A DNA stretch of 64,000 bases from Candidatus Limnocylindria bacterium. Lineage in GTDB: Bacteria; Chloroflexota; Limnocylindria; QHBO01. This document shows, piece after piece, positions 7,946 to 51,910 of the stretch; the first letter of the stretch is position 1, and every line of letters begins with the position of its first letter. Both the position numbers and the translations under genes were made by a program. The notes below the pieces were generated by a model. The model ran no database searches. It was not told where the DNA came from and worked only from the letters and a program-made list of their open reading frames with translations. The stretch spans positions 2,661-66,660 of the forward strand of contig DATBIY010000077.1 in assembly GCA_036556695.1 (NCBI GenBank). Reading direction: 5' to 3'.

Positions 7946-8042
7946 CCCCGCGTACCGAGCCGATGTGCGCATCCGTGCGCTGCCGGGGTGGGTGCGTGTA
8001 GAGTCTTGCCGGCATGCCAGTTGCAGAGATCGTCGCCGGACC

Positions 8043-11267: not shown

Positions 11268-13114
<1,847 letters not shown>

Positions 13115-14376: not shown

Positions 14377-14481
14377 GCCACCGGCGCGGGGCTGGTGGCT
14401 ACAATCTGCGCCCGGAACCTGAGCCGGCTGCACCCGCCGCAGGCCCGCTGCCCACTGACCACGTCACCATTGGAGGATCAT

Positions 14482-21308: not shown

Positions 21309-22225
21309 GCGGCGGCGCTCCAGGCGGAGAGGTCGCGTTCCAGCAGTCGGCCGAGCCGCTCGACCTCCGGCGCGAACTCGGCCCGCAGGCGTCGTCGCAG
21401 CTGCGGATCCATGGGCGGCCGTCGCTCGGGGCGGGCGTTCATGTTGAGGACGGTGCGGAACACGCGCTTGCGCAGGTGCGGCGGCATGACGGCGCGCGCC
21501 ACGGCACGCAGGAAGCCGGGCGGGTTGGCGGCCACGTCTCGCACCAGCCGGCTGCGGCTGCGCTTGCTGGGATTGACCACCCGAATCGCGGGCTCGAAGG
21601 TGTCATCCACCTCCAGGAAGCGCAGCACGTCGCGAACGGCCGCCAGGGTATCGGCCTTGAAGTCGTCGTAGAGGATGACGTGCACGCGTTCCCTGCCCAG
21701 GGCGTCGAAGAAGCGCTCGACCTGCTCTGTATAGCGCGCTGAATCTCGGTACAGGAGCGCGACCGGTCGGTTGGCGCCGGGAGGGATGCGCCTCCCGCGA
21801 CGCCGGTCGTCCTCGGCGGCCAGTGCATCGGCGAAGTCCTCGATGTCCTCGGCGCCGATGAAGACCAGCTCGCTGTGCATCGCGTACATCATCTCAACTG
21901 GGTCGCGCAGCATGATGATCGCTCGTGCACCCGGGCTGAACTCGGCGATCTCTCGGGCCGCCAGGCGCGAATGCAGGTAGCGGACCGATGCCTCCCCCAC
22001 CCGCAACTCGTCCCGCGCGTCGGCGAAGTAGCGCAGGTACTCCCCGAGGGTCGGGCGCGGCGTGCGGCGGCGCTCCAGGTCGCTGCCGAAGTAGTGCAGC
22101 TCCTTGGCGGCCGGCAGGAAGATCTGCGGGTGCTGGCGCAGGTAGTCGTAGAGGGCGGTGGTGCCTGCCTTGGGAGCCCCGGGAATGAAGAAGTCCGGAC
22201 GGCGGGGGTTGGGCCGCGCGCTCAA
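21305..22225 (-). CDS. Carbohydrate sulfotransferase (Sulfotransfer_1/3, heparan-sulfate OST-like), paralog 2
   Basis: 5'-PSB motif FFIPGAPKAGTTALYDYL and 3'-PB motif IIMLRDPVEMMYAMHSE. Start assigned to TTG 22225, overlapping the upstream stop (TTGA); the 130-aa 5' extension in the track is spurious. Confidence 0.75.
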   Translation of the reverse strand: MSARPNPRRPDFFIPGAPKAGTTALYDYLRQHPQIFLPAAKELHYFGSDLERRRTPRPTLGEYLRYFADARDELRVGEASVRYLHSRLAAREIAEFSPGARAIIMLRDPVEMMYAMHSELVFIGAEDIEDFADALAAEDDRRRGRRIPPGANRPVALLYRDSARYTEQVERFFDALGRERVHVILYDDFKADTLAAVRDVLRFLEVDDTFEPAIRVVNPSKRSRSRLVRDVAANPPGFLRAVARAVMPPHLRKRVFRTVLNMNARPERRPPMDPQLRRRLRAEFAPEVERLGRLLERDLSAWSAAA

Positions 22226-23121
22226 GCCTGCCTCACCGCCGTCCAGGCGGAGAGGTCCCGCCCGATGACTCCAGCCAGGCGATCCACGTCGGGCGCGAAC
22301 TCGGCGGTGAGCCTGGCCCGCAGCTCGGCCGACATGCGCGGCCGCTCGGCGTAGCGGATGTTGGCCCGCTTCACCGCTCGGGAGACGGCGTGCGAGATCG
22401 GCCCGGGGAGGCGGTTGGTGACGGCCACGTAAGCCGGGTGGTAGGTGATGCGTCGCAGCAGCTCGGAGCGCACCCCCTTGTTCTGGTTCACCACCGAGAA
22501 GTCCGGCGCGAAGCTGGAATCCACCTCCAGAAACTCGAGCGTATCGCGGTAGGTGGCCGCGGCATCCGCGCTGAGGTCGTCGTACAGGATCACCTTGAGC
22601 TGCTCGGTGCCCCACACCTCGAGCCAGCGCTCGACGTGCTCGGCGTAGCGCCCGCAGGCCCGGTACAGCAGCCCCTCCGGCCTGCGCACGCCCGGCGGCA
22701 GTCGCCGGCCCTCGGCGCGGTCCGGCTCGGCGGCCAGCGCCTCCTCGAACTCGGCGATGTCCTCGTTGGCGGTGAAGAGCTGGTGGCTGTGCAGCGAGTG
22801 AACCATGTCGACCGGGTTGCGCAGCATGATGATGATCCGCGCGTCCGGCACGAAGTCACGTATCTCGCGAGCGGCCGTCTGTGAGTAGAGGTACCAGACC
22901 GTGGCCTCACCGCGCCGCGCACGGCCGGCTCCCGGCTCGAACAGCTCCCGATAGCCTGCCTCGTCCAGGTAGGGCTTCCGCTTCTGGAGGTCCGCGCCGA
23001 AATAGACCGGCTCCTTGCGCAGCGGCATGAACACGTCGGGATGCTGGCGCAGGTAGTCGTACATGGCCGTCGTACCGCAGCGGGGCGCGCCGGCGATGAA
23101 AAAGTTGGGGCCGGTTGTCAC
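22222..23121 (-). CDS. Carbohydrate sulfotransferase (heparan-sulfate OST-like), paralog 1
   Basis: FFIAGAPRCGTTAMYDYL (5'-PSB) and IIIMLRNPVDMVHSLHSH (3'-PB). Start GTG 23121 overlaps the TagF-like stop (GTGA). The 661-aa track ORF fuses it artefactually to an out-of-frame overlap of the upstream gene. Confidence 0.75.
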   Translation of the reverse strand: MTTGPNFFIAGAPRCGTTAMYDYLRQHPDVFMPLRKEPVYFGADLQKRKPYLDEAGYRELFEPGAGRARRGEATVWYLYSQTAAREIRDFVPDARIIIMLRNPVDMVHSLHSHQLFTANEDIAEFEEALAAEPDRAEGRRLPPGVRRPEGLLYRACGRYAEHVERWLEVWGTEQLKVILYDDLSADAAATYRDTLEFLEVDSSFAPDFSVVNQNKGVRSELLRRITYHPAYVAVTNRLPGPISHAVSRAVKRANIRYAERPRMSAELRARLTAEFAPDVDRLAGVIGRDLSAWTAVRQA

Positions 23122-24374
23122 TCGCCGGAGTTTAGGGTGAGCGTCGGACCGCTGCGCTCGGCGGCCGGTTCGAGCTCGAGGCCGATGCGCTCGGCCACGG
23201 CGCGCACGATGCGCTCCGAGCTTCCTGGCTCGTCGCGGTCCCGCTGCCGCTGGCGGATACGCCGCGCTGCGTCGCGCGCCTGGCGGTCGTCGCCGCGGGC
23301 GGATGCCGCCAGCGCTGGCAGCAGCGACTGCCACGTCTCGTGGTACGTCCCGCCGGTGAAGGCCTCGTAGGGCTCGTACAGCCCCAGCCCGCCGCGGTAG
23401 GCGGCCAGGTCTGGCGCGAAGAAATGGATGGGCCGATCGAGCAGCGCGTAATCCGACGCGGCGCTGGAGTAGTCGGTCAGCAGCGCATCGCCGACGCGCA
23501 GCAGGGCGTTGGGGTCGACGTCCCGCTGGTCGAGCAGCCGGATCCTGGGGTGCTCGGGCAGGCGCCCGCGAAACACGGCCTGATCGGCGTAGGGATGCGG
23601 CTTGATGGCCAGCAGCGCCGGCGTGCCGGCGAGGTGGCGGTCGAGGGCGTCGGCGTCGAGGGCCGGCAGCCAGCCGGCGTCGCCCTCGTCGCGCCAAGTG
23701 GGCAGCCACAGCACCACGTACGCGTCGGCGGGGAGTCCGAGACGCTGCCGCAGGTCCCTGCCACCCACCCGGTCCAGCGCCTCGGCACCAAGGATCACGT
23801 CGAAGCGCGGCGTTCCCAGCGCCACGACTTTGCGCTCCGGCGCAGCGAACGCCGTCTTGAACCGTTCCTTGCCCAGCTCGCCCTGGGCGATCACCAGGTC
23901 GACCTGGCCCAGGCGCCGCGCGACCAGCCAGCGGCGCAGGCGGGCAACCATGCGCCGCCGCCAGGACGATGCCCGCAGTTCCGGATCGTCCATGTCCAGC
24001 AGGATCTTCTTGTTCGGCATGCCGTGCCGCATGTCGACCACGAAGGCGCCGCCCAGGTACGCGGCTTCCACGTCCTGGAAGCCGCTGGACAGGAAGGCGA
24101 CCCGCGCCCGCGACTGGACATCGTGAGCCTCGGGGCTGCCGCGTCGGGCGACGCGCAGGCCGGCAGCCCGGGCGGCACCGGCCTCCGCGTCGCTGCGTGC
24201 GATCCACCAGGCCTCGATCTGCGGATGTGCGTGGGCCACGTGCTCCGCCAGGTAGCGCGAGTTGTCAGCGAAGCCCTTGACGCTGCCAAAAACCCAGGTG
24301 CGCGGGTCGCGATGACGGAGGTGCCCGAGGACGTAGCGCGCGGCGACTCGTCCGCGCCGCAGGGCATCAGCCAC
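23118..24374 (-). CDS. CDP-glycerol:glycan glycerophosphotransferase (TagB/TagF family)
   Basis: LTDYSSAASDYALLDRPIHFFAPDL and IKPHPY regions are characteristic of the Glyphos_transf (TagF) domain; 418 aa. Confidence 0.7.
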   Translation of the reverse strand: MADALRRGRVAARYVLGHLRHRDPRTWVFGSVKGFADNSRYLAEHVAHAHPQIEAWWIARSDAEAGAARAAGLRVARRGSPEAHDVQSRARVAFLSSGFQDVEAAYLGGAFVVDMRHGMPNKKILLDMDDPELRASSWRRRMVARLRRWLVARRLGQVDLVIAQGELGKERFKTAFAAPERKVVALGTPRFDVILGAEALDRVGGRDLRQRLGLPADAYVVLWLPTWRDEGDAGWLPALDADALDRHLAGTPALLAIKPHPYADQAVFRGRLPEHPRIRLLDQRDVDPNALLRVGDALLTDYSSAASDYALLDRPIHFFAPDLAAYRGGLGLYEPYEAFTGGTYHETWQSLLPALAASARGDDRQARDAARRIRQRQRDRDEPGSSERIVRAVAERIGLELEPAAERSGPTLTLNSGE

Positions 24375-25296
24375 CGGCGGCCACGCCTTCGGCCGCGGGC
24401 CTGTGTGGCACGCGCTGCTCTCGCCAGGCGGGCAGCGGGTGGAGCAACTCCTCCACGTAGCGGATGTCCGGCTCGAACAGCTCGGTCATGCGGCGCCAGA
24501 CGTCCGGGGCCAGCTCCGGGTAGGCCGTGCGCCGCAGGTTCAGCAGATCCAGCCGTCCACGAACGTCGCGCGCCCTGTGGCGCAGGCCGGCTGGCAGGAA
24601 GGTCCAGCGCATGCGCTTCGTCCGGCGCAGCAGCCCGTGCACCAGCGACGAGGCCGGCTTGCCATGCGGGTTGTACTCGCGGTGGTACTCGGCGTGGAAG
24701 CTGTCATCCACGCCAATGAAGCGGCAGACCTCGCGATAGGTGCGCGCCGGATCCGCCCGGAAGTCGTCGAAGGTGGCGACGTACACCCGCTCCGGCCCGA
24801 AGGCCTCGCGGTAGCGCTGCAGGTGCTCGGCATAGCGGCTGACATAGTCCAGGTAGCGCAGCTGCGGGTCGTCGTCCAGGATCGCCTCGAACGGCGGCAG
24901 GCGGTGGCCGTTCTTGCGGTAGTGCCAGTAGTGCGAGTACGCGCGATCCACCGGCTGGCGCAGCACGAAGATGATGCGCAGCCCCGGAACGTGGCGCTCC
25001 ATCAGCTCCGGCGCATCGCGGGCGCAGAGGTAGTGCGTGCTGGCCTCGCCGCGCGCCGCACGGCCCTCGCCGCCCTCGAACAGGCTTTCGTACCAGTCCA
25101 TGCCGCGGGCATAGCTATCCGGGCGCGGCCGGCCCACGATCCGCACCCCGGGCGCGGGCTCGCTCACCTCGCGGGTGAAGAAGTGCGGCTCCTTGAAGGC
25201 GGTCATGAACACGTCCGGGTGCTCGCGCAGCATGCCCCACAGGGCGGTGGTCCCCGATTTCGGCGCGCCACCGATGACGAAGGTCGGAAGGGTCAC
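24367..25296 (-). CDS. Carbohydrate sulfotransferase (heparan-sulfate OST-like), paralog 3
   Basis: FVIGGAPKSGTTALWGML (5'-PSB) and IIFVLRQPVDRAYSHYWH (3'-PB); 309 aa; overlaps the downstream gene start by 8 nt. Confidence 0.8.
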   Translation of the reverse strand: MTLPTFVIGGAPKSGTTALWGMLREHPDVFMTAFKEPHFFTREVSEPAPGVRIVGRPRPDSYARGMDWYESLFEGGEGRAARGEASTHYLCARDAPELMERHVPGLRIIFVLRQPVDRAYSHYWHYRKNGHRLPPFEAILDDDPQLRYLDYVSRYAEHLQRYREAFGPERVYVATFDDFRADPARTYREVCRFIGVDDSFHAEYHREYNPHGKPASSLVHGLLRRTKRMRWTFLPAGLRHRARDVRGRLDLLNLRRTAYPELAPDVWRRMTELFEPDIRYVEELLHPLPAWREQRVPHRPAAEGVAAGG

Positions 25297-25328
25297 CCGG
25301 CCATCTTAGGGCGAGCGCTGAGATGGCC

Positions 25329-26912
25329 TCAGATGTCCTCGTCCAGGCCGGCCGACAGGCCCGGGTCCGGCTCCGGGCCGGCGTCTGGCGCCCCACCGCG
25401 CTTGCGACGGCCGCCACGCCGAAAGACCTCGGAGAGCAGGGCCAGCACGTCGTGGACCAGGCGCCGTTCGACCAGCCAGATGACTAGCACATAGGTAGCC
25501 CCGCCGGCGATCACCTCCGCCGCCAGCAGCAGGCTCAGCGAGCCGTGACCGGCGAGCAGGAGCTTGACCAGCAGGACGACCGCGGCCATCGCAGCGGTGG
25601 CGATGGCCACGCCCTGCAGCCGGCCCAGGTACTCACCGATCGGGATCTGGCCGTATCGGCTCATCCAGGACAGGTTGAGCGGCAGGAGCAGGTAGCCGCG
25701 CAGCACGAAGGCAGCCGCCACGGCCAGGATGCCGAACCACACCGCGATCAGGAAGCCGGCCACGTTGGTCACGGTGGTGATGAAGCGGAAGCGCAGCACC
25801 ACACCCGGCTGGCCGATGGCGTTCAGGTAGGCGCCGCTGAAGGCCTGCAGCGTCAGCACCGGGCCGATCAGGAACAGCACCGCCGCCACCGGGCCGCTAT
25901 CGGTCCAGGTCCGCCCGAAGACGAGGATGGTCATCTCGGGAGCAACCAACGCCAGACCGATGTAGCCCGGCAGGATGAACGCGCCGGCCACGCGCGTGAC
26001 CTGGAAGTAGCTGCGCCGCATGCGCGGAACGTCGCCCTGCAGGCGCGAGAAGGCCGGGAAAGCCACGCGCCGCGCCACGTTGATGAGCAGGTTCTGGGTG
26101 ACTGTCAGCACCCGGTAGCCGACGGAGTACAGCCCCAGCGGCGTGAAGCCCAGCACGACCCCGATGAGCAGGTTGTCGACGTTGCGCGACAGGAAGTTGA
26201 GGACGTCGGAGCCGACCACCTTGAGACCGAACGCGGATAGCTCGCGAAAATCGGCGAACGAGGCCTGGATGCTCGGGCGCCAGGGACTGGCTCGCCACAG
26301 GACCAGCAGCGAGACCACCGCGGTGACCAGCTGCTGCGCCACCAGCGCCCAGGCGCCGGCCCCGTACAGGGCCAGCCCCACGCCGGCGATGCCGCCCGCC
26401 GCGGTGGAGATGAGGGCACGCATCGCCAGCTCGCGGAACCGGAACTCGCGCCGCAGGATGGCGATCTGGATGCTGCTGCCGGCTGCCGGCAGGAAGCTGA
26501 AGCTCAGTGCCTGCAGGACGGCGGTCAGCGCCGCCTGCTGCTTCGGCTCGGCAACCACCAGTGCGACCGGGGCCGCGAGCAGGATGCCGGCGAGGGTGAG
26601 CACCACGCCCGTGGCCACGGCCGCCCAGAAGGCGGTGTTCAGCTGGCTGGGGGAGATCGTCTGCTTCTGGATGAGCGCGTCGCCCAGCCCCTGGTCGACG
26701 ATGAGCTGAAAGAGGAGGATGAAGGTCGCGGCCAGCGCCACCAGCCCGAAGTCATCCGGCGTCAGCAGCCGCGCCAGCAGCACGAAGACGAGCAGGTTGA
26801 GCAGCTGGCGTCCCCAGGTGTCGACGATGGTCCAGGTCAGGCCTCGGGCGACATGCCCGCGCAGGCCCCTCGTCTCCTCGCCGTGCACCGACGGCAGCCA
26901 CGGGTCGCCCAA
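25329..26912 (-). CDS. Wzx-type oligosaccharide flippase (MOP/polysaccharide biosynthesis protein family)
   Basis: About 14 TM helices with the Polysacc_synt layout and a charged, Pro-rich cytoplasmic C-terminal tail; 527 aa. Confidence 0.75.
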   Translation of the reverse strand: MGDPWLPSVHGEETRGLRGHVARGLTWTIVDTWGRQLLNLLVFVLLARLLTPDDFGLVALAATFILLFQLIVDQGLGDALIQKQTISPSQLNTAFWAAVATGVVLTLAGILLAAPVALVVAEPKQQAALTAVLQALSFSFLPAAGSSIQIAILRREFRFRELAMRALISTAAGGIAGVGLALYGAGAWALVAQQLVTAVVSLLVLWRASPWRPSIQASFADFRELSAFGLKVVGSDVLNFLSRNVDNLLIGVVLGFTPLGLYSVGYRVLTVTQNLLINVARRVAFPAFSRLQGDVPRMRRSYFQVTRVAGAFILPGYIGLALVAPEMTILVFGRTWTDSGPVAAVLFLIGPVLTLQAFSGAYLNAIGQPGVVLRFRFITTVTNVAGFLIAVWFGILAVAAAFVLRGYLLLPLNLSWMSRYGQIPIGEYLGRLQGVAIATAAMAAVVLLVKLLLAGHGSLSLLLAAEVIAGGATYVLVIWLVERRLVHDVLALLSEVFRRGGRRKRGGAPDAGPEPDPGLSAGLDEDI

Positions 26913-26982
26913 GCGCTCTCCTCGTCGGATGAAGTCGGGTTGGAGTGTAGCCGCGAGGGAGCGACGCTAGGCTTGCCGCTGC

Positions 26983-27918
26983 ATGACCAGCGACCGCTTT
27001 CCGGACTTCTTCATCGTCGGCGCCTTCAAGAGCGGCACCACCGCGCTGTACGAGTACCTGCGCCCGCACCCGCAGGTGTTCATGCCGTTCCACAAGGAGC
27101 CGCTCTATTTCGGCGACGACCTGACTCGGCGTTACGGGCGCATGACGCGGGAGCAGTACCTCGACCTCTTCCGGGCTGCGCGGCCCGACCAGCGGGTGGG
27201 CGAGGCATCGGCCTGGTACCTGTACTCGCGCTCGGCGGCGCGGGAGATCGCCGCCGCCTCGCCGGGCGCACAGATCGTGGTGATGCTGCGCAACCCGGTG
27301 GACGTCATGTACGCCGAGCACAGCCAGCTGATCTTCAACGTGGAGGAGGACATCCACGCCTTCGCCGAGGCGCTGGAGGCGGAGCCGGCGCGCCGCCGGG
27401 GCGAGCGCATGCCACCCGGGCCGCTGCGACCGGAGACGCTGTACTACCGCGAGAGCGTGCGCTTCGCCGAGCAGCTGGAGCGCTACTTCGACACCTTCGG
27501 CCACGAACGGGTCCATGTCATCGTCTACGAGGACTTCCGCGATGACACGCCGGGCACGTATCGGGCACTGCTCGAGTTCTTGGGCGTGGATCCCGGCTTC
27601 GTGCCCGACTTCGCGATCCGCAACCCGAACAAGAGCGTGCGCTCGTCGCTGCTCCAGCGCCTGACCTACCAGCCTCCCGGACCCCTGCTGCGGCTGGTCC
27701 CGGTGCTGCGGCGCTTCCCGCTGGTCCACCGGCTGCGGGACATGGTGCTGCGGCTGAACAGCTCACCGGCCCCGCGCCGGGCGATGGACCCGGACCTGCG
27801 CAGGCGCCTGACCCATGAGCTGCGGCCGGAGGTCGAGCGGCTGGGCACGCTCATCGGCCGCGACCTGTCGGCATGGACCGCGGTCGGGGACCCGGCCGGA
27901 GACCCGCCTGCGGCGTGA
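26983..27918 (+). CDS. Carbohydrate sulfotransferase (heparan-sulfate OST-like), paralog 4
   Basis: FFIVGAFKSGTTALYEYL (5'-PSB; Phe replaces the usual Pro, Lys retained) and IVVMLRNPVDVMYAEHSQ (3'-PB); 311 aa. Confidence 0.8.
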   Translation: MTSDRFPDFFIVGAFKSGTTALYEYLRPHPQVFMPFHKEPLYFGDDLTRRYGRMTREQYLDLFRAARPDQRVGEASAWYLYSRSAAREIAAASPGAQIVVMLRNPVDVMYAEHSQLIFNVEEDIHAFAEALEAEPARRRGERMPPGPLRPETLYYRESVRFAEQLERYFDTFGHERVHVIVYEDFRDDTPGTYRALLEFLGVDPGFVPDFAIRNPNKSVRSSLLQRLTYQPPGPLLRLVPVLRRFPLVHRLRDMVLRLNSSPAPRRAMDPDLRRRLTHELRPEVERLGTLIGRDLSAWTAVGDPAGDPPAA

Positions 27919-27985
27919 CCTGTGGCGATTCGTGTACGGTGTGCGGCGCGCTCGAACAGCGCGTGATCAACAGCAGGGAGACGGC

Positions 27986-29299
27986 GTGCAGGTAGCCATC
28001 ATCGGACTCGGATATGTCGGGGCGACCACTGCGGCCTGCCTGGCCGACCTGGGCCGCCAGGTGGTCGGCGTCGACACTGACGCCACCAAGGCCCAGGCGA
28101 TTGCCGCCGGCCGCTCACCAATCGCCGAGCCGGGGCTGGACGACCTGCTGGCCAAGGGGGTGGCGGCCGGGCGCATCCGGGTCGCGGGCCTTGCCGAGGC
28201 GGTGGCCGACGCGGACCTGATCATGATCGCGGTGGGCACGCCCTCCGCCCCGTCCGGGGCGCTCGACCTGACGGCCGTGCAGCGCGTGGCCGAGCAGATC
28301 GGTGCGGCGCTGCCGCGCGACGACCGCTTCCGGACGGTGGTCGTGCGCAGCACAGTCCTGCCCGGCACCACCGAGGAGATGGTCCAGCGCGCCCTCGAAG
28401 ACGGGTCGTCTATGCGCGCCGGCACCGACTTCGGGCTGGCCATGAACCCCGAGTTCCTGCGCGAGGGGACCAGCATCCGCGACTTCCACGAGGCCTCGCG
28501 CACCGTCATCGGCGCCAACGACGATCGCTCCGCCAGCCGGGTGCGCGACGCCTACGAAGGCCTCGCCTCGCCGTTCGAGGTGGTGCCAATCCGCACGGCC
28601 GAGATGGTGAAGTACACCGACAACGCATTCCACGCCACGAAGATCGCCTTCGCCAACGAGATCGCCTCCTTCGCGCGGGCCAACGGCGTGGACGGTCGCG
28701 ACGTCATGCGGCTGATGATGGCCGACGATCGGCTCAACATCTCGACCGCCTACCTGCGCCCCGGCTACTCCTTCGGCGGCTCGTGCCTGCCCAAGGATCT
28801 GCGGGCCATCACGGACCGCGCGCGGAAGTCGGATATCGACCTGCCGCTGCTCAACGCCGCGATCACCAGCAACGCGGCGCACTTCGAGCGCGGGGTGCGG
28901 CTGGTCGAGGCGGCAGGCAGCCGCGACGTGGCAATCCTGGGGCTGTCGTTCAAGTCGTCGACCGACGACCTGCGCGAGTCGCCGGCGGTGGCGCTGGCCG
29001 AGCGCCTCATCGGCAAGGGTTGCCGCGTCACCATCTACGACCCGGACGTCGACCCGGCGCTGCTGCGCGGCGCGAACCGCGCCTTCATGGAGCAGCACCT
29101 GCCGCACCTGGTGCAGCTGCTGTGCTCGTCGCTGGCTGAGGCCGTGACACCGGCGGGCACGGTGGTCGTCACTAAGCACTGGCCGGCGCTGGAGGAACTG
29201 GCAGGCCTGCTGCGTGACGAGCAGCGCATCGTGGACCTCGTCGGCGTGCCGGCGCTGCAGTCGCTCGGCGCGCATCGCTACGCCGGCATCGGCTGGTGA
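27986..29299 (+). CDS. Nucleotide-sugar 6-dehydrogenase (UDP-glucose/GDP-mannose dehydrogenase family)
   Basis: VAIIGLGYVGATTAACLA Rossmann motif and catalytic GGSCLPKD. Start set to GTG 27986 with GGGAGA 4 nt upstream; the track's 5' extension overlaps the preceding sulfotransferase. Confidence 0.8.
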   Translation: MQVAIIGLGYVGATTAACLADLGRQVVGVDTDATKAQAIAAGRSPIAEPGLDDLLAKGVAAGRIRVAGLAEAVADADLIMIAVGTPSAPSGALDLTAVQRVAEQIGAALPRDDRFRTVVVRSTVLPGTTEEMVQRALEDGSSMRAGTDFGLAMNPEFLREGTSIRDFHEASRTVIGANDDRSASRVRDAYEGLASPFEVVPIRTAEMVKYTDNAFHATKIAFANEIASFARANGVDGRDVMRLMMADDRLNISTAYLRPGYSFGGSCLPKDLRAITDRARKSDIDLPLLNAAITSNAAHFERGVRLVEAAGSRDVAILGLSFKSSTDDLRESPAVALAERLIGKGCRVTIYDPDVDPALLRGANRAFMEQHLPHLVQLLCSSLAEAVTPAGTVVVTKHWPALEELAGLLRDEQRIVDLVGVPALQSLGAHRYAGIGW

Positions 29300-29315
29300 G
29301 GGTCGCGCCGGCACG

Positions 29316-31406
29316 TTGAGCGCTCCCCATTCTGCTCCTCCGGTCGAGGAGTCGGCCTGGGACACGGCGGTCTCGACGGTCGGTCGCGACCACTTTCGCC
29401 CTGACATCGAGGGGCTGCGCGCGGTCGCCATCCTGGCAGTGCTGGCGTACCACGCCCGCATCCCGATCCTTGGTGGCGGCTTCGTGGGGGTCGATGTCTT
29501 CTTCGTCATCTCCGGCTTCCTGATCACCGGACTGCTGCTGCGCGAGCTGCGCAGCAGTGGCACCATCGACCTGGGCCAGTTCTACGGGCGACGCGCCCGG
29601 CGGCTGCTGCCCGCCGCGCTGGTGGTCATCGCCGTCACCTTGCTGGTGTCGCGCTTCCTGCTCACCCCGGTGCAGTTCTCCGAGGTGGCGGCCGACGGGG
29701 CGGCGGCCTCGCTCTACGTCTCGAACTACCGCTACGCGATCATCGCCACCGACTACTTCGCGGTCGACGTTGCGCCGTCGCCGCTGCTGCACTACTGGTC
29801 GCTTGGCGTCGAGGAGCAGTTCTACCTGTTCTGGCCGGTGCTCATCCTGCTCATCGGGCGGGCCTGGTCGCCGCGTCGCCTGTGGCCGGTGATCGCCGTG
29901 ATCTCGATCGCCTCGCTGGCCCTGTCGGTCGCCATCACCGGCTTCCAGGCGCCATGGGCCTTCTACTCGCTGCCGACGCGAGCCTGGCAGCTGGGCCTGG
30001 GTGCGCTGATCGCGCTCGGGGTGCTGGCCGTGCCTGCCCGCTGGCCGACCGTCGCGGCCACGGGCATCGGCGCGCTGGGCGGGCTGCTCATCGGCGCCGC
30101 GGTGGTGCTGATCGACGACTCGACGCCCTATCCGGGCGTCGCGGCCGTGCTGCCGGCCGCCGGCGCGGCCCTGCTGATCATGGCCGGCGAGCGCCCCGCG
30201 ACGCTCGGCGCGCGGCTGCTGGCCACCAGCGTTCCGCGCTGGTTCGGCCGCATCTCGTACTCGCTCTATCTTTGGCACTGGCCGATCCTGATCCTCGGCC
30301 CGCTGCTCATCGGTCGAGACGGGATCCGCACGCGAATCGCCCTGGCGATCCTGTCGGTCGGCGTGGCGGCGCTGAGCACCCACTTCATCGAGTCTCCCTT
30401 CCGGTCGCAGCTCGCAGCGCGCTTCGGCAACCTGCGGACGCTGGGCGTGTCGGGCGCGCTGTCGCTGTCGATCGCCGTCGTGGCACTGGCGGTATCGGGC
30501 CTGTTCGGCCCGTCCACCATCGGCCGGCCGCTGCCGACCATGCCCCCGTCCGGGCCGAACCGTCCGCCACTGCCGCAACCCGTGCTGACGGGGCCGGTGC
30601 CGGCGGACCTTCAGCCGTCGCTGCTCGAGGCGCACGACGACCGCGGGCCGCTGGGGCCGGACGACTGTCAGACCACCATCACCGAATCAGCGCTCCGCGA
30701 CTGCGTGTACGGCAACGAGGCGTCCGACACCACGGTCGTCGTCTTCGGCGATTCGCACGGCGCCATGTGGATGCCGGCGGTCCAGGCCATCGGCGAGGAG
30801 CGGGACTGGCGCATCGTCCCGCTTGTCAAGTTCGGCTGCCCGCCGGTGATGGTCACGGTCTGGCATCGCAGCCTGGAGCGGGCGCTGCCCGAATGCGACG
30901 CATGGCGCCAGCTGGCGCTGGACCGCATCGCCGAGCTCAAGCCGGAGATCGTCTTCGTCGTCACCTCGCGAAACCATGCGCTGGCCGATGAGAGCGGCAA
31001 CCTGCTGACGGGAGGCAAGGCGGCCCGCTGGCGGGCCGGGATGGTGGACATTCTGCGTGCGGTGCGGGAGCGCAGCGAGCGCACGATCCTCATCGGCGAC
31101 AATCCGCACCTGCTGCACGGCCAGCTGCCCTGCCTGGAGACCACCAGCCGCATCGAGGATTGCCTTGCCACCCGGGACGAGCTGTTCAACGAGCGGAATG
31201 CCGCGGTCGAGCGGGCGGCCGCGCAGGAGGCGGGGGCCGAGCTGGTGCCTACCGTGGACTGGATCTGTCCCGACGGCACGCCGGAAGGCACCTGCGCCCT
31301 GGTGATGGACCACTACCTGGTCTTCCGCGACCGCGGACACCTCACCGCCACGATCACGACCGTGCTCGCCCCGCAGCTGCGCTGGGCGATCGATCACCCG
31401 CAATGA
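29316..31406 (+). CDS. Acyltransferase-3 (OafA/OatA-type) membrane O-acyltransferase with C-terminal SGNH domain
   Basis: RPDIEGLRAVAILAVLAYHA...GVDVFFVISGFLIT Acyl_transf_3 signature, 10 TM segments, and a C-terminal extracytoplasmic SGNH-like domain (VVVFGDSHG). Start codon uncertain (TTG 29316 tentative). Confidence 0.6.
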   Translation: MSAPHSAPPVEESAWDTAVSTVGRDHFRPDIEGLRAVAILAVLAYHARIPILGGGFVGVDVFFVISGFLITGLLLRELRSSGTIDLGQFYGRRARRLLPAALVVIAVTLLVSRFLLTPVQFSEVAADGAAASLYVSNYRYAIIATDYFAVDVAPSPLLHYWSLGVEEQFYLFWPVLILLIGRAWSPRRLWPVIAVISIASLALSVAITGFQAPWAFYSLPTRAWQLGLGALIALGVLAVPARWPTVAATGIGALGGLLIGAAVVLIDDSTPYPGVAAVLPAAGAALLIMAGERPATLGARLLATSVPRWFGRISYSLYLWHWPILILGPLLIGRDGIRTRIALAILSVGVAALSTHFIESPFRSQLAARFGNLRTLGVSGALSLSIAVVALAVSGLFGPSTIGRPLPTMPPSGPNRPPLPQPVLTGPVPADLQPSLLEAHDDRGPLGPDDCQTTITESALRDCVYGNEASDTTVVVFGDSHGAMWMPAVQAIGEERDWRIVPLVKFGCPPVMVTVWHRSLERALPECDAWRQLALDRIAELKPEIVFVVTSRNHALADESGNLLTGGKAARWRAGMVDILRAVRERSERTILIGDNPHLLHGQLPCLETTSRIEDCLATRDELFNERNAAVERAAAQEAGAELVPTVDWICPDGTPEGTCALVMDHYLVFRDRGHLTATITTVLAPQLRWAIDHPQ

Positions 31407-32596
31407 GGCGCGCGCTGATCCTGGTCGAGGACCTGCCGGTGCCGTTCGACCGGCGGGTCTGGTCTGAGGCACGCACCCTGCGTGACGCTGGCTGGCGCGT
31501 GACCGTCGTCTGCCCGCGCGGCGAGGGGTCGCGGCGCTGGCACGAGCGCCTGGAGGGCATGGAGATCTTCCGCTATCCGCTGCCGACCACCGCCGCCGGG
31601 CTGCTCAACCACATCATCGAGTACGCGGTGGCCATTCCGGCGACGCTGCTGCTGTCGCTGCTCGCCTGGCGCGGGCGCCGCTTCGACGTGGTCCACGCCT
31701 GCAACCCGCCGGACTTCCTGTTCCCCATCGGCTGGCTGTTCCAGCGGCTGGGGTCGGCCTTCGTCTTCGACCAGCACGACCTGGCGCCGGAGGTGTACGT
31801 CGCCCAGGGAGGCAGACCGGGAGGTCTGGTGCATCGGTTCCTGCTGTGGTGCGAGCGTCGCACCTACCGCGCCGCGGACGTCGTCATCGCCACCAACGAG
31901 ACGTATCGGCGCTTCGCGATCGAGCGTGGGGGCGTGGATCCGCAGCGGGCGTTCATCGTGCGCTCCTCACCAGATCCGGCGCGCATCCACCAGGTGACGC
32001 CCGATCCCGGCCTCAAGGGCGGCCGGCCGCACCTGGTGGTCTACCTCGGCACCATGGGGCCGCAGGACGGCGTGGACAACTTCGTTCGCTCCGCTGCCGC
32101 GCTCCTGCGGGAGCGGCCCGGAAGCGCCCGGTTCGTGGCGGTTGGCGGCGGCAACCAGCTCGAAGCGCTGCGCGCGCTCGCCGCCGATGTCGGCCTTGGA
32201 ACCGATGACCTGGCCTTCACCGGTCGCATCCCCGATGCCGAGGTGCGCACCATCCTCTCCACCGCGGACGTGGCGGTCAGCCCGGATCCGGCCAATGGCT
32301 TCAACGAGTTCTGCACCATGAACAAGACGCTCGAGTACATGGCCTGCGGCGTGCCGGTGGTCGCCTTCGACCTCCAGGAGACGCGGGTCAGCGCCGCCGA
32401 CGCCGCCATCTACGCCACGCCGAACGACACCGATGACCTGGCGCGGCGAATCATCGAGCTGCTCGACGATCCGGTGCGGCGCGAGCAGATGGGTCGCGCC
32501 GGCCGGGAGCGGATGGCCGGCCCGCTGTCATGGGAGGTATCGGCCGCAAACCTGCGCGACGCCTACGCAGCCGCGGTCGCGTTCCGCAGAGCCTGA
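31403..32596 (+). CDS. GT4-family glycosyltransferase
   Basis: GT-B fold with C-terminal EX7E-like region (NEFCTMNKTLEYMACGVPVVAFD). ATG 31403 overlaps the upstream stop (ATGA). Confidence 0.75.
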   Translation: MRRALILVEDLPVPFDRRVWSEARTLRDAGWRVTVVCPRGEGSRRWHERLEGMEIFRYPLPTTAAGLLNHIIEYAVAIPATLLLSLLAWRGRRFDVVHACNPPDFLFPIGWLFQRLGSAFVFDQHDLAPEVYVAQGGRPGGLVHRFLLWCERRTYRAADVVIATNETYRRFAIERGGVDPQRAFIVRSSPDPARIHQVTPDPGLKGGRPHLVVYLGTMGPQDGVDNFVRSAAALLRERPGSARFVAVGGGNQLEALRALAADVGLGTDDLAFTGRIPDAEVRTILSTADVAVSPDPANGFNEFCTMNKTLEYMACGVPVVAFDLQETRVSAADAAIYATPNDTDDLARRIIELLDDPVRREQMGRAGRERMAGPLSWEVSAANLRDAYAAAVAFRRA

Positions 32597-32603
32597 TGCC
32601 GGG

Positions 32604-34535
32604 CTAGGGCCAGAAGCCGTCAGGCAGGCGGGCCACCAGCTCACGCGCGAAGAGCCGCGCCCCGTCCTCGGTGAAGTGCACCGGGTCCGAGCGCAGCGTC
32701 ACGCCGGCGACGCTGTCCGGGCAGGGGTTCGAGGGGCAGAGGATCGGGTCCGGATCCACCACCACGACGTCCTCCGGATGTTCCGCCGCCCACTTGCGGT
32801 ACTCGGCGCGCAGCGAGTTGATCGAGAGGATCGGCCTGGTGCACTCCTCGCTCCACGCCTCGTCGCCGGAGCACGCGGTTGGGTCGTCGCCGGCTCGGTG
32901 GAAGGGCAGGATCAGGACCACCTTCGCTCCCTTCGCGGTGAGGCGATCGAGAACCCCGTCCCAGTCGCCGAAGGCCGCGGCCTCCCACTCCGGGCTGGCT
33001 GGCGCGAGCACCACGCCGTCCTGACGGATCGGAAAGCGGTCGCGGTTGCTGATCCAGAAGATGACGCTCGGCTGGAACCTGTCCACCATGCCGGTCTGGC
33101 CGCGCTGGACAGCCTGCGGGCAGTCGTCGGCGTACGGGAACGGGACGCCGTTGCCGGCGACATGCTCCGCCACGCCGATCGGGCACCCGGGGAACGCCGC
33201 GGCTGCCAGCGTCTGCGAGTCGCGTGCGCCCCGCTCGGCCAGGCCCGGATAGAAGCTCATGGCGACGGAATCGCCAATGAGGCCGATGGCACCGCGGGCG
33301 TCGGGCACCACGTGCGTGATCAGCTGGCGGTTGCCCTCGACGAACTGCGGCGCGCGCAGGGCGCCGCGCGTTGCAAACACCGTCATGCCGGAGAGCACGA
33401 GCGCCACGCCGAGGGCGCCGGCCGCCACCTGCGGCACGCCCAGCCGCAGCGATCCCAGCCGGCCGTGGCGGATGGGGCGCTCCACCAGGAAGAAGCTCAG
33501 AGCCGAGATCCCCAGCGTCGCCGCGACGCGCACGACGGCCAACAGCGGCTCGGTGAGCGAGGTGTTCGCCGGCGTGACCCACAGGATCACCGGCCAGTGC
33601 CACAGGTACAGGCCGTACGAGATCATGCCGATCCACGGCAGCGGCTGGATCGACAGGCCGCGCCCCACCAGGTTTCGGCGATCGCCGGCGCTGGCTGCCA
33701 GGCTGGCGATCAGCGTGGCGGCGGCCACTGAGAAGGCGAGCGAGCCGCCGAAGTAGTACACCGCCGACGAGTCAGCCAGCAGCACGCCGAACAGGGCCAG
33801 CACCGCGATCGCCAGGCCCGCCGCCAGCGGAGCCACGCGTCGAACCAGCGCGGCGAATCCCGGAGAGCGATCCAGCATCCAGGCGGCCAGCGCCCCTACC
33901 AGCAGCTCGTGTGCGCGGGTGTGGGTCGCGTAGTATGCGGCCGATGGATCGGCCTCGCGCCAGGTGAGCGCCAGCGCGATGACCGACAGGCCGATCCCCA
34001 GCGCGAGGATGACCGGGATAACTTGTGCTCCCCACCGGCGCCAGGCGACGAGCCCCAGCCCCGAGGCGGTCAGCAGCGGCCACAACCCGTAGAACTGCTC
34101 CTCGATGGCCAGCGACCACAGGTGCAGCACAGGCGACGGCGAAGCGAACTCCTGGAAGTAGCTCTGCCCCTCGACGATGAAGCGCCAGTTGGCGACGTAG
34201 AAGAGCGACGACAGGATGTCGCCACGCAACCGGTCACGGTCGAACGGGGAGGACCACAGCGCCGCCACGGCGACCGCGGCGATCACCAGGAACAGGGCGG
34301 GCAGCAGCCGGCGGGCGCGCCGCAGCCAGAACTCGGACAGGGCGATCCGGCCGGTGGCCGCGTGCTCGCGCATGAGCAGCGTGCTGATCAGGAAGCCGGA
34401 CAGGACGAAGAACAGGTCCACCCCCAGGAAGCCGCCCGGCAGGAAGCCCAAGCCAAGGTGGTAGGCCATCACCCCGCCCACCGCCAGCGCGCGAACGCCA
34501 TCCAGCGCGGGAAGATATGCCAGCTTCGGGGCCAC
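32604..34535 (-). CDS. Acyltransferase-3 (OafA-type) membrane O-acyltransferase with C-terminal SGNH domain, second copy
   Basis: YLPALDGVRALAVGGVMAYHLG...GVDLFFVLSGFLIS signature, multiple TM segments, C-terminal SGNH-like domain (LIGDSVAMSF). Start GTG 34535 (M-APKLAYLPALDG) tentative. Confidence 0.6.
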   Translation of the reverse strand: MAPKLAYLPALDGVRALAVGGVMAYHLGLGFLPGGFLGVDLFFVLSGFLISTLLMREHAATGRIALSEFWLRRARRLLPALFLVIAAVAVAALWSSPFDRDRLRGDILSSLFYVANWRFIVEGQSYFQEFASPSPVLHLWSLAIEEQFYGLWPLLTASGLGLVAWRRWGAQVIPVILALGIGLSVIALALTWREADPSAAYYATHTRAHELLVGALAAWMLDRSPGFAALVRRVAPLAAGLAIAVLALFGVLLADSSAVYYFGGSLAFSVAAATLIASLAASAGDRRNLVGRGLSIQPLPWIGMISYGLYLWHWPVILWVTPANTSLTEPLLAVVRVAATLGISALSFFLVERPIRHGRLGSLRLGVPQVAAGALGVALVLSGMTVFATRGALRAPQFVEGNRQLITHVVPDARGAIGLIGDSVAMSFYPGLAERGARDSQTLAAAAFPGCPIGVAEHVAGNGVPFPYADDCPQAVQRGQTGMVDRFQPSVIFWISNRDRFPIRQDGVVLAPASPEWEAAAFGDWDGVLDRLTAKGAKVVLILPFHRAGDDPTACSGDEAWSEECTRPILSINSLRAEYRKWAAEHPEDVVVVDPDPILCPSNPCPDSVAGVTLRSDPVHFTEDGARLFARELVARLPDGFWP

Positions 34536-34570
34536 CGTCCGGTCGCCGCCGGCCGGCCCTGCCAGGCCGC

Positions 34571-34969
34571 TCACGCAGGTCGGGAGAAGATCTCGGCGCG
34601 AACCTCGGTGGTCGAGATGTTCGGCGTTCGGGGCAGGTACAGCACCTCGCACAGCTCGTTGAGGTGGTCGAACTTCCCCTCCCAGTCCTGTCCCATGACC
34701 AGCACGTCGGCGTGGAAGCGCTTGATGTAGTCGGCCTTCGCCTCGAGCGACTCCTCGGGGAACGTGAAGTCGACCACGCGCAGGCTGGACACGATCCTGA
34801 TCCGCTCCGCCTCGGGGTAGACCGGCGGCACTCCCTTCTTGGCGATGGTGAGCGCATCGGTCGACACGCCGACCACCAGGTAGTCGCACACCGCCTTGGC
34901 GCGCTCGAGGATGTTGATATGGCCGATGTGCAGCAGGTCGAACGTGCCGAAGGTGATGCCTACCCGCAT
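34571..34969 (-). CDS. tagD: Glycerol-3-phosphate cytidylyltransferase (CDP-glycerol synthase)
   Basis: GTFDLLHIGHINILERAK (HxGH nucleotidyltransferase motif) and RTPNISTTEVR; 132 aa from the internal ATG 34969. Confidence 0.8.
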   Translation of the reverse strand: MRVGITFGTFDLLHIGHINILERAKAVCDYLVVGVSTDALTIAKKGVPPVYPEAERIRIVSSLRVVDFTFPEESLEAKADYIKRFHADVLVMGQDWEGKFDHLNELCEVLYLPRTPNISTTEVRAEIFSRPA

Positions 34970-34973
34970 CGTC

Positions 34974-35954
34974 TCAGCTTCCCTCTCCGTGGTGAAACGC
35001 CCGCGCGATCTCGCGAGGCTCGTGCAGCGCCGCAAGGATAGTCTCGAAATAGCCGGACGAAATTCGGTGCCGTCGGAGGATTGACACGAACCCCTCCGCC
35101 GACCCCACGCCTTCGGCCAGCGCGCCGTCGGGATCCTCTTCCCGCGCCAGCCGCAGGCCGTGCTGGTAGTTGCGTGACTTCGGCGAGGAGCAGCTCAGGA
35201 AGAAGTCGGCCAGCGCTCCGGCCGATATGACGGTGCGCGGGTCGCCGCCCAGCTGCTGCGCCACCCCGCTCAGCTCCACGACGCCCTGCGCGATAAACGA
35301 GGCGCGGAAGTTCTCGCCCATGCCCAGCCCGTCCGCCAGCCCGGCGCCCAGCGCGATGATGTTCTTGCCCACGCCGGCTACCTCGAGGCCGCGCACGTCG
35401 GTCGTCAGCTCGAAGCGCAGCCGCTCGTTCTCGAGCTGGCCCGCGACGCGCCGACCGAGCTCCGGGTTGGCGCAGGCGAAGGTCAGGAAGACCGGGTGCC
35501 CGGCCAGCATCTCGTCGGCGAAGCTGGCGCCCGACATGACGGCGATGAACGACGACCCGGTGGAGGCGTAGATCACCTCGCTCGGAAAGCGGGCCGAGGT
35601 GGCGTCGATGCCCTTCACGCACGACACGAAGGCGGTCGACTCGCTCGCGGCGCTCGCCCTGCCGCCGAGCACCTCGCCGATGGCGTGGCTGGGCAGGGTG
35701 ACGACCACAACGTCGTAAGCGTCCAGCGCAATCCCATCCGCCCGGGCGATGACGTGCTGCACCGGATGGTCGAACGTGCGCTGGCTGCGGTTGTAGACGC
35801 TGACGTCCACGTCGCCGCGTGTGGAGATGGCCGCGTGGAACGCCCTTCCGAAGGCGCCGTAGCCCAGGATCAGGAGTCGCGTCACGTCGCCGGTGTTCGA
35901 TCGCTGCGCCGGCTCGGCCGCAGGCTCGGCGGCCGGCGATGCCTGCACTGCCAT
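34974..35954 (-). CDS. gpsA: NAD(P)H-dependent glycerol-3-phosphate dehydrogenase (GpsA-like)
   Basis: N-terminal Rossmann LLILGYGAFGRAF, GpsA-like central region (VKGID...; AGVGKNIIALGAGLADGLGMGENF) and C-terminal SRNYQHGLRLA; immediately upstream of tagD. Confidence 0.65.
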   Translation of the reverse strand: MAVQASPAAEPAAEPAQRSNTGDVTRLLILGYGAFGRAFHAAISTRGDVDVSVYNRSQRTFDHPVQHVIARADGIALDAYDVVVVTLPSHAIGEVLGGRASAASESTAFVSCVKGIDATSARFPSEVIYASTGSSFIAVMSGASFADEMLAGHPVFLTFACANPELGRRVAGQLENERLRFELTTDVRGLEVAGVGKNIIALGAGLADGLGMGENFRASFIAQGVVELSGVAQQLGGDPRTVISAGALADFFLSCSSPKSRNYQHGLRLAREEDPDGALAEGVGSAEGFVSILRRHRISSGYFETILAALHEPREIARAFHHGEGS

Positions 35955-51829: not shown

Positions 51830-51910
51830 GCGCCGTTCCGATGGCGGGAGCGGGCCATCGGCCAGGACGAAGACATGTGGCTCCTCAGTCGGCGCGGTGC
51901 GATCCAAGGT

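Follow-up and report, generated by a model that had tools for sequence, protein, structure and literature searches.

The DNA analyzed here is a window of 64,000 nucleotides from a contig of Candidatus Limnocylindria bacterium (GCA_036556695.1, DATBIY010000077.1). It carries a polysaccharide locus of ∼28 kb (∼7.9–36.0 kb of the window) with the layout of a Wzx/Wzy pathway, and among its genes are those for a TagB/TagF-family glycerophosphotransferase, a TagD-like cytidylyltransferase and a GpsA-like dehydrogenase. We consider it probable that these three genes form the glycerol-phosphate module of a locus producing a sulfated surface glycopolymer. The TagF-family transferase is genetically tied to sulfation, and the module is a part of the locus that some close relatives lack. 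The host is an uncultured soil bacterium of the class Limnocylindria, a lineage known solely from metagenomes; Limnocylindria are abundant Chloroflexota of soil and freshwater. Because the DNA is ∼70% G+C across the whole window, real genes were chosen by their third-position GC. An actinobacterial origin, to which such a base composition might point, was rejected because homologs and synteny assign the window to Candidatus Limnocylindria. Nearly all window genes were annotated by Pfam and NCBIfam profile searches, and the longest unannotated gap is at most 360 bp.

Coupling of the TagF-family gene to sulfotransferase genes

The transferase matched the PF04464 profile with 180.6 bits (cut-off 22.1), covering profile positions 8–366 of 367, and aligned with Staphylococcus epidermidis TagF (3L7I) at E 1e-21. 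H117 (within RHGMP) and H260 (within KPHPY) align with the catalytic H444 and H584 of that enzyme, in a register confirmed by the entry for its H584A mutant (3L7M), and both histidines are invariant in 25 TagF orthologs. The gene named in an earlier note on this DNA was thus confirmed, and its catalytic motifs are kept. The protein scored 80 bits against TagF, 64–70 against TarL, 61 against TarF and 35 against TarB, and equivalog-level identity with TarB, TarF or TarL was not reached (35–70 bits vs. NCBIfam cut-offs of 500–1000). Judged by its sequence, it is a member of the PF04464 family and an ortholog of no named enzyme.

The gene is part of a minus-strand operon with the order Wzx1, ST3, TagF, ST2, ST1, Wzy-like, GT4_a (Table 1; ST, sulfotransferase; GT, glycosyltransferase). 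Start and stop codons overlap by 8 nt between ST3 and TagF, by 4 nt at each of the next three junctions (TagF/ST2, ST2/ST1 and ST1/Wzy-like) and by 1 nt between the Wzy-like gene and GT4_a, and the genes from ST3 to GT4_a are translationally coupled. The earlier statement that the TagF-like gene sits inside the sulfotransferase operon is accurate, since the gene overlaps a sulfotransferase gene on either side. A divergent plus-strand operon holds ST4, UDP-glucose dehydrogenase, AT3-SGNH a and GT4_b, and a second minus-strand operon holds GpsA, TagD and AT3-SGNH b, the GTG start of the last (34574) overlapping the tagD stop. Because a scan of 18–37 kb for promoter and terminator consensus sites found no excess over shuffled sequence, the operon structure is drawn from gene overlaps.

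The pairing recurs in relatives of the host. A hidden Markov model (HMM) built from the window's four sulfotransferases, later joined by 11 more and with its threshold relaxed to E ≤ 0.01, was run on the six-frame open reading frames (ORFs) of all 120 loci, which are designated here by L and a number. A sulfotransferase gene was present beside the TagF ortholog, on the same contig, in 17 of 30 ortholog loci (or 13 of 23 once near-duplicates were merged). For the 82 loci whose TagF homologs are more distant (from Actinomycetota, Bacillota and other phyla), the same search found none, a figure that describes a sample and not a census because the matches from Genome Taxonomy Database (GTDB) species representatives were the best 80 of 591 confirmed TagF matches. 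The difference is significant (Fisher p ∼1e-10); most of the sulfotransferase-bearing ortholog contigs are 1.5–5 kb long, and most distant-homolog loci have 10 kb flanks. Within the best 80 GTDB matches, close orthologs came from two loci, both of Chloroflexota, and the next-best matches were from Microbacteriaceae (33–37% identity). Close homologs of the transferase (44–59% identity) are all metagenomic, and those bearing names are Candidatus Limnocylindria bacterium. In a neighbor-joining tree, the association with sulfotransferases is spread through the Chloroflexota TagF clade, and chance co-location is for this reason very unlikely.

The gene orders differ among these relatives: Wzx-ST3-TagF-TagD in L093, TagF-ST-APS kinase (adenosine 5'-phosphosulfate kinase) in L107 and L108, and sulfotransferase genes on both sides of TagF in L094. 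Two loci, L001 and L010, keep the whole core at 44–74% identity in the order inorganic pyrophosphatase (PPase), (AT3-SGNH), ST3, ST4, ST4', Wzx1, TagF, TagF', polyol cassette, ST1, GT4_a, ST2, Wzy-like, DHH.

The supply of cytidine diphosphate (CDP)-glycerol is the second part of the module. TagD-like protein aligned end to end with Bacillus subtilis TagD (1COZ, residues 2–127; E 8.6e-35) and has the motifs HIGH (HxGH) and RTPNISTT (RTxxISTT); its ORF spans 34571–35035, with translation likely beginning at the ATG at 34969, behind the ribosome-binding site GGAGAGGGAAG. It scored under the NCBIfam equivalog cut-off of TIGR01518 (129.9 vs. 165.4 bits), which was still its best-scoring model. The GpsA-like protein was above cut-off for both PF01210 and PF07479, with its N-terminal domain matched only partly, and matched the solved glycerol-3-phosphate dehydrogenases of Leishmania and Coxiella (1EVY and 3K96); relative to 1EVY it retains the motifs GKN (in GKNIIALGAG) and SRN (in SSPKSRN). 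Its best NCBIfam GpsA score, 188 bits, was under the cut-off of 257. By these scores the GpsA-like protein is a divergent paralog, and both proteins are divergent members of their families rather than textbook orthologs. The tagD and gpsA-like genes described in the earlier note are both in place with their motifs kept, and together with the transferase they complete the gene set that it had proposed for making and using CDP-glycerol. We infer CDP-glycerol as the donor, and not CDP-ribitol or another, solely from these two genes of the locus.

A sulfation locus with a variable polyol-phosphate module

Four sulfotransferases, the genes for synthesis of 3'-phosphoadenosine 5'-phosphosulfate (PAPS), a candidate phosphatase for 3'-phosphoadenosine 5'-phosphate (pAp) and a sulfatase are clustered in this one locus (Table 1). 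All four sulfotransferases pass Pfam cut-offs (Sulfotransfer_1/3), have 5'-phosphosulfate-binding (5'-PSB) loops of the forms GAPK[AS]GTT, GAPRCGTT and GAFKSGTT, and have heparan-sulfate 3-O-sulfotransferase (3-OST) and N-deacetylase/N-sulfotransferase (NDST) as their nearest solved relatives. Because each starts directly at the PAPS-binding loop (GAPKxGTT) and has no signal peptide, they are predicted to be cytoplasmic. ATP sulfurylase and APS kinase, identified by their domains, together make PAPS; the start of the APS kinase gene was suggested by the onset of high third-position GC. The NrnA-like DHH protein probably hydrolyzes pAp, the by-product of sulfotransfer.

Table 1. Genes of the polysaccharide locus and the putative anchoring genes, in window coordinates.
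Feature	Position	Strand	Basis
Polyprenyl-phosphate hexose-1-phosphate transferase (Bac_transf with CoA_binding_3)	7896..9449	+	PF02397 E 9.8e-70
CitMHS/TrkA_C/Na_sulph_symp transporter, putative sulfate importer	9477..11249	-	Pfam; adjoins PAPS synthesis genes
APS kinase	11268..11906 (start approximate; ORF to 12125)	-	PF01583 E 9.6e-61
ATP sulfurylase (PUA_2 and ATP-sulfurylase domains)	11936..13378	-	PF01747 E 9.9e-99
Sulfatase-family protein, secreted or membrane-anchored, motif CCPSK	13240..14376	+	PF00884 E 1.5e-35; sequence read directly
DHH/DHHA1 protein, NrnA-like	14395..15480	+	Pfam; weak NCBIfam NrnA match
PMT_2 (GT-C) membrane glycosyltransferase	15489..16913	+	PF13231
GtrA-like membrane domain fused to HprK-related P-loop domain	16961..18547	+	PF04138; weak TIGR04352 match
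GT4 glycosyltransferase GT4_a, last gene of coupled operon	18544..19773	-	Pfam
Polytopic membrane protein, Wzy-like polymerase or ligase (511 aa)	19773..21308	-	Assigned via homologs
Sulfotransferase ST1	21305..22225	-	PF13469 and PF00685
Sulfotransferase ST2	22222..23121	-	PF00685 E 5.8e-16
TagB/TagF-family glycerophosphotransferase	23118..24374	-	PF04464 Glyphos_transf E 5.6e-53
Sulfotransferase ST3	24367..25296	-	Pfam; PDB matches 3RNL, heparan-sulfate 3-O-sulfotransferases, NDST
Wzx/MOP flippase Wzx1, first gene of coupled operon	25329..26912	-	PF13440 E 3.2e-79
Sulfotransferase ST4, divergently transcribed	26983..27918	+	Pfam
UDP-glucose 6-dehydrogenase (UGDH), predicted supplier of uronic acid	27986..29299	+	Pfam; TIGR03026 398.6 vs. 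cut-off 189.8 bits
AT3-SGNH O-acyltransferase a	29316..31406	+	PF01757 and PF19040
GT4 glycosyltransferase GT4_b	31403..32596	+	Pfam; start chosen
AT3-SGNH O-acyltransferase b, on the same strand as gpsA-tagD and immediately downstream	32604..34574	-	Pfam
TagD-like glycerol-3-phosphate cytidylyltransferase	34571..34969	-	PF01467; 1COZ match E 8.6e-35
Divergent GpsA-like NAD(P)H glycerol-3-phosphate dehydrogenase	34974..35954	-	PF07479 and PF01210
LCP-family protein	49375..50859	+	PF03816 E 2.7e-19; below NCBIfam TIGR00350 cut-off
WecA/TagO-like polyprenyl-phosphate GlcNAc-1-P transferase	50864..51907	-	PF00953 E 1e-38

In three genomes (the window, L001 at 20431–20676 and L120 at 20768–21575), the sulfation locus has the DHH/DHHA1 gene at its edge, and the conservation of this gene fits a dedicated pAp phosphatase substituting for CysQ. 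The sulfatase-family protein is 378 aa long, which is short for a sulfatase, and has an N-terminal signal or membrane anchor; its formylglycine (FGly) motif has Lys in place of the Arg of the canonical C-x-P-x-R. It may trim the sulfated polymer extracellularly, or else it may not be a conventional FGly sulfatase. The GtrA-like fusion protein joins a four-helix membrane domain to a C-terminal region of ∼350 aa, which contains the P-loop AKTDTGKTS and weakly matches HprK-related kinase A, and an ortholog with 72% identity sits at the edge of the L119 locus.

A sugar-phosphate transferase, a Wzx flippase and a Wzy-like protein, the set expected of a Wzx/Wzy pathway, are all present. The sugar-phosphate transferase (Bac_transf) passes the NCBIfam EPS_sugtrans model TIGR03025 (391 bits vs. 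a cut-off of 296) and is likely the priming enzyme of the locus. Wzx1 matched NCBIfam MOP flippase and TuaB models below cut-off. The 511-aa membrane protein gave no Pfam or NCBIfam match even at E ≤ 5; ∼16 of its 120 homologs (41–48% identical) carry PF04932 (Wzy_C), two of them being named O-antigen ligase, and we call it Wzy-like by this indirect assignment.

The same locus occurs at the same chromosomal site in L119 and L120 (contigs of 1.13 Mb and 0.61 Mb), whose GlnA is 92% identical to that of the window. The order there is GGDEF, DUF3048, Cys/Met PLP (pyridoxal phosphate) enzyme, PucR, GlnA, PPase, GT4_b, UGDH, Wzx1, ST4, Wzy-like and GT4_a, followed by three more sulfotransferases interspersed with a further GT4, a beta-helix protein, PMT_2 or GtrA, and DHH. 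Two Limnocylindria loci from metagenome-assembled genomes (MAGs) encode a PPase that matches the window's at 89% and 85% identity. Although both L119 and L120 have four sulfotransferases, genes for TagF, TagD, GpsA and AT3-SGNH were not found in their loci. Since the sulfation locus thus occurs without it, the glycerol-phosphate module is a variable add-on and not a defining part of the polymer. Of the earlier proposal that one polymer carries both groups, the tie between the transferase and the sulfation genes therefore stands, whereas the glycerol-phosphate is variable and missing from close relatives.

In L120 (6125–9037) the GT4_b, UGDH and Wzx genes are split into several short ORFs, although the genes are intact in L119; the breaks are most likely frameshift errors of long-read assembly and not real pseudogenes. 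Another small glycan cluster of the window (36536–41298), with two GT4 genes, one GT1 gene and the gene of a second Wzx-type flippase, separates the pyrophosphatase gene from glnA, and because ppa and glnA are adjacent in L119 and L120, this cluster looks like a strain-variable insertion.

Elsewhere, TagF orthologs are accompanied by other genes for polyol activation. In the Chloroflexota MAG locus L009 (7994–12699), the ortholog (54% identical) lies with an LCP gene, an FMN-dependent dehydrogenase, an IspD (TarI-like) gene and a short-chain dehydrogenase/reductase (SDR; TarJ-like), with no sulfotransferase within 10 kb, and these genes look like a ribitol-phosphate-type wall polymer module in Chloroflexota. 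In L003 the ortholog is paired with an IspD-SDR fusion. A four-gene cassette of a class II ketose-bisphosphate aldolase, an FGGY (xylulokinase-like) kinase, an iron-dependent alcohol dehydrogenase (Fe-ADH) and an NTP_transf_3 nucleotidyltransferase adjoins tandem TagF paralogs in sulfotransferase-rich loci (L001 11302–15660, L003 11300–15630 and L004 7477–11807). It probably makes a nucleoside diphosphate-activated polyol or ketose phosphate other than CDP-sn-glycerol-3-phosphate; for the cassette as it occurs in L001, L003 and L010, a CDP-2-glycerol-type pathway (pneumococcal Gtp1-3) is one guess, the NCBIfam matches being ambiguous. Because relatives lack the module or have other activation genes, the base product appears to be a sulfated Wzx/Wzy polysaccharide on which the polyol-phosphate can be swapped, in a manner analogous to serotype variation of pneumococcal capsule loci.

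Proposed pathway and its alternatives

What was observed directly is which genes are present, which catalytic motifs they keep, how the operons are coupled, that synteny is conserved and that the module is accessory; the chemical steps, the acceptor and the final location of the polymer are read from these observations, and the pathway would run as follows. The Bac_transf enzyme would prime undecaprenyl phosphate with hexose-1-phosphate, and the GT4 enzymes would lengthen it into a short repeat unit containing a uronic acid (UDP-glucuronate from the UDP-glucose dehydrogenase). The four PAPS-dependent sulfotransferases would O-sulfate the lipid-linked unit in the cytoplasm, with PAPS provided through the adjacent transporter, ATP sulfurylase and APS kinase and with pAp removed by the NrnA-like DHH protein. 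The GpsA-like reductase would convert dihydroxyacetone phosphate to glycerol-3-phosphate, which TagD would join with CTP to give CDP-glycerol, and the TagF-family enzyme would add glycerol-phosphate from this donor. Wzx would then flip the decorated unit and the Wzy-like protein would polymerize it, the two AT3-SGNH enzymes would O-acylate the polymer outside the membrane, and the secreted sulfatase may trim it.

The locus resembles a teichuronic-acid or capsule locus more than one for classical wall teichoic acid. TagA was not found in the window, either by tblastn with the TagA-like (WecG) protein of L001 or as PF03808 among the annotated genes, nor was a TagGH-type ABC exporter found among the genes covering the 64 kb, beyond which one could lie. 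Because the window has a Bac_transf primer, Wzx and a Wzy-like protein instead of TagA and an ABC exporter, the pathway is probably not that of classical wall teichoic acid, and for the same reason one glycerol-phosphate per repeat is favored over a long poly(glycerol-phosphate). The glycerol-phosphate is most likely a pendant or once-per-repeat substituent that varies between strains as serotypes do.

Several observations weigh against this reading. Since neither TagD nor GpsA reaches its NCBIfam cut-off at equivalog level, a donor other than CDP-sn-glycerol-3-phosphate is conceivable, and a chain-length regulator (PCP/Wzz or a CpsC/CpsD-like pair) is absent among the annotated window genes. 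Sequence similarity does not separate a single-addition TagF or a primase from a polymerase, and the best labeled matches of the TagF-like protein are polymerases or transferases (TagF, TarL, TarF) and not the primase TarB. L001 and L010 have two tandem TagF paralogs with five and three sulfotransferases and few glycosyltransferases (one or two), to which an in-chain or oligomeric polyol-phosphate is better suited than a pendant group. The L009 ortholog subclade sits with TarI/TarJ-like genes and an LCP gene away from sulfotransferases.

Some of these points would suit a true sulfated teichoic-acid-like polymer, in which the TagF-like enzyme polymerizes or oligomerizes glycerol-phosphate or places it in the main chain (repeats joined by phosphodiesters), sulfate is on glycosyl substituents or a free glycerol hydroxyl, and LCP links the product to peptidoglycan. 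That the closest solved or labeled relatives of the protein are the polymerases TagF and TarL, and that L001 and L010 have tandem paralogs, would both follow; TagA/WecG and MnaA-like genes are also part of the L001 locus, and in L009 and L111 the TagF homolog has an LCP gene as its immediate neighbor. We nevertheless regard this polymer as unlikely for the window, which has a single TagF and the Wzx/Wzy gene set described above in place of TagA and TagGH, and whose close relatives dispense with the module. Wzx flippases, moreover, are not known to transport poly(glycerol-phosphate) in long chains.

It is quite unlikely that the sulfated, glycerol-phosphate-bearing oligosaccharide is instead transferred from its lipid carrier to protein (e.g., an S-layer glycoprotein) or to lipid by the Wzy_C/O-antigen-ligase-like protein or the PMT_2 GT-C enzyme. 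The Wzy_C family includes ligases as well as polymerases, and the two O-antigen ligase annotations among the homologs would agree with such a transfer, as would the weak match of the PMT_2 GT-C protein to archaeal STT3, a below-cut-off match of Wzx1 to an "O-glycosylation flippase" model and the failure to find a chain-length regulator among the annotated window genes. However, the proteins of the locus include no candidate acceptor, the O-glycosylation model matches are weak and below their cut-offs, and the overall layout matches that of polysaccharide loci such as the B. subtilis tua operon.

Very unlikely, finally, are two unrelated products, with TagF, TagD and GpsA serving a conventional teichoic acid encoded elsewhere and lying among sulfation genes incidentally (the earlier note had named a TagB acting on an unrelated, unsulfated teichoic acid as what would refute it): tagD-gpsA is 10 kb from tagF in a separate operon and the orthologs in L009 and L102 have no sulfotransferase nearby, but translational coupling to sulfotransferase genes on both sides of tagF, adjacency kept at 44–59% protein identity in many independent contigs and absent at distant homologs (17/30 vs. 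0/82), and a TagD gene directly beside the ST3-TagF pair in L093 all argue against it.

The sulfated Wzx/Wzy polymer that we favor may be destined for peptidoglycan via LCP, for a capsule or exopolysaccharide (EPS), or for protein. Chloroflexi are generally viewed as monoderm and encode LCP proteins and teichoic-acid-like genes (PMC8793728, PMC7831098). The LCP and WecA/TagO-like genes to which the earlier note had attributed anchoring of the polymer are indeed present, 13–16 kb downstream (Table 1); the WecA/TagO-like protein scored 142.8 bits against TIGR02380, whose cut-off is 326. Between these two genes and the cluster lie six unrelated ones (glnA, a PucR regulator, ResB-like, a Cys/Met PLP enzyme, DUF3048 and GGDEF), and the two adjoin a separate sugar cluster at 53.6–62.5 kb. 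For these two reasons, anchoring through LCP and WecA is conjectural, and the peptidoglycan-anchored polymer of the earlier note did not gain support. LCP enzymes accept polymers linked to undecaprenyl diphosphate, and anchoring of the locus polymer to peptidoglycan is possible.

The adjoining sugar cluster (53650–62513, minus strand) encodes GT4, GT2, a UDP-ManNAc/GlcNAc 6-dehydrogenase-like protein, a GFO/IDH/MocA oxidoreductase, a UDP-GlcNAc 2-epimerase and a hexapeptide acetyltransferase, interspersed with MazG and a triple-rotamase peptidyl-prolyl isomerase (PPIase). It resembles a WbpA/B/D/I-type pathway for a 2,3-diacetamido-uronic acid, with no aminotransferase seen, and is the more likely partner of WecA and LCP.

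A bolder proposal, which we consider possible rather than probable, is that Limnocylindria bear a previously unrecognized anionic wall glycopolymer, a teichuronic/teichoic hybrid of heparin-like charge density whose short repeats would each bear a polyol-phosphate, a uronic acid and as many as four or five sulfates. It would be linked to peptidoglycan by LCP and would vary between strains by swapping of polyol cassettes (CDP-glycerol, TarIJ-like, aldolase-kinase-ADH-NTP-transferase, or none). If true, this would be the first case of a monoderm bacterium using a TagF-family enzyme to build a sulfated wall polymer.

Comparison with known systems

In the common view, sulfated polysaccharides are rare among bacteria, and a paper of 2026 still describes them as exclusive to cyanobacteria (PMC13390465). 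The locus described here would extend them to Limnocylindria, a major uncultured Chloroflexota lineage of soil and freshwater, and it is self-contained, encoding sulfate import, PAPS synthesis, pAp recycling, four or five sulfotransferases and a sulfatase by our annotation. It couples sulfation to TagF-type polyol-phosphate transfer, a pairing unseen at any of the 82 other TagF-family loci sampled. Such a locus suggests a route to a strongly anionic surface, with possible roles in cation binding, desiccation tolerance, phage recognition and soil aggregation. The glycerol-phosphate module is gained and lost between strains, a pattern that suggests diversification of the surface in the manner of serotypes, with phages or predators as the probable selective force. 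For glycoengineering, the locus is a source of new sulfotransferases and glycerophosphotransferases. Our literature search for sulfotransferases and teichoic acids in Chloroflexota or Limnocylindria returned general statements and nothing specific, and we found no account of sulfated polymers in Chloroflexota or of sulfotransferase genes coupled to TagF genes.

A polymer with both glycerol-phosphate and sulfate has been described, contrary to the earlier note, which knew of none. The capsule of Cobetia marina KMM 1449, ->4)-a-L-Rhap2S-(1->3)-b-D-Manp6PGro-(1->, has both groups in one polysaccharide, and its cluster includes PAPS synthesis, PAP phosphatase, sulfate permease and sulfotransferase genes (PMC11766843). 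However, Cobetia is a marine Gram-negative gammaproteobacterium whose capsule is exported through an ABC transporter of the Kps type, and the authors of that work suggest phosphatidylglycerol, via an LtaS-like WcbQ, as the source of the glycerol-phosphate in place of CDP-glycerol and TagF (PMC11766843). Its polymer has one sulfate per repeat, whereas the window has four sulfotransferase genes.

The nearest architectural analogue is the teichuronic acid operon of B. subtilis (tuaABCDEFGH), as judged from established knowledge and TuaB- and TuaD-like matches. Both loci have a Bac_transf primer, a Wzx-type flippase, GT4 enzymes, UDP-glucose dehydrogenase and a Wzy-like polymerase, and the tua product is a monoderm's wall polymer, anionic and non-teichoic; in NCBIfam, Wzx1 and UGDH of the window gave TuaB- and TuaD-like matches below cut-off. 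Teichuronic acid, however, has neither sulfate nor glycerol-phosphate, tua has no PAPS genes, sulfotransferases, TagF or TagD, identity to the window locus is low, and the two are not orthologous operons.

The pneumococcal capsule is attached to peptidoglycan by an LCP enzyme. In the Wzy capsule loci of Streptococcus pneumoniae, gct and the glycerol phosphotransferase gene come and go by serotype, glycerol-phosphate being a serotype-variable substituent (PMC1391919). These loci (gct plus glycerol phosphotransferase, or gtp1-3 plus wchX) share with the window a locus-encoded CDP-glycerol supply and a glycerol phosphotransferase within a Wzx/Wzy pathway. Unlike the window locus, they belong to another phylum and yield unsulfated capsules, and the window has a dedicated GpsA paralog.

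Sulfated Wzx/Wzy clusters offer a further comparison: the loci for synechan (xss) in Synechocystis PCC 6803 and wps-1 in Actinoplanes missouriensis follow the Wzx/Wzy scheme and each encode several heparan-sulfate-like sulfotransferases (PMC13390465, citing Maeda 2021). A TagF/TagD/GpsA module is missing from both, and, unlike them, the window clusters PAPS synthesis, pAp phosphatase and sulfatase together; the wps-1 product is predicted and chemically unverified.

The 64 kb window has in common with classical wall teichoic acid synthesis (TagO-TagA-TagB-TagF-TagGH-LCP) a TagF-family catalytic domain that retains the two histidines, TagD, and genes for LCP and a TagO-like enzyme, but it has Bac_transf, Wzx and a Wzy-like protein where that pathway has TagA and TagGH, and its TagO-like and LCP genes lie outside the locus. 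The logic of the locus combines two known kinds, the glycerol-phosphate-decorated Wzy capsules of pneumococci and the sulfated Wzx/Wzy EPS loci, and it is best filed as one for a teichuronic-like, multiply sulfated Wzx/Wzy polysaccharide with an optional CDP-glycerol/TagF module, characteristic of an uncultured class of Chloroflexota.

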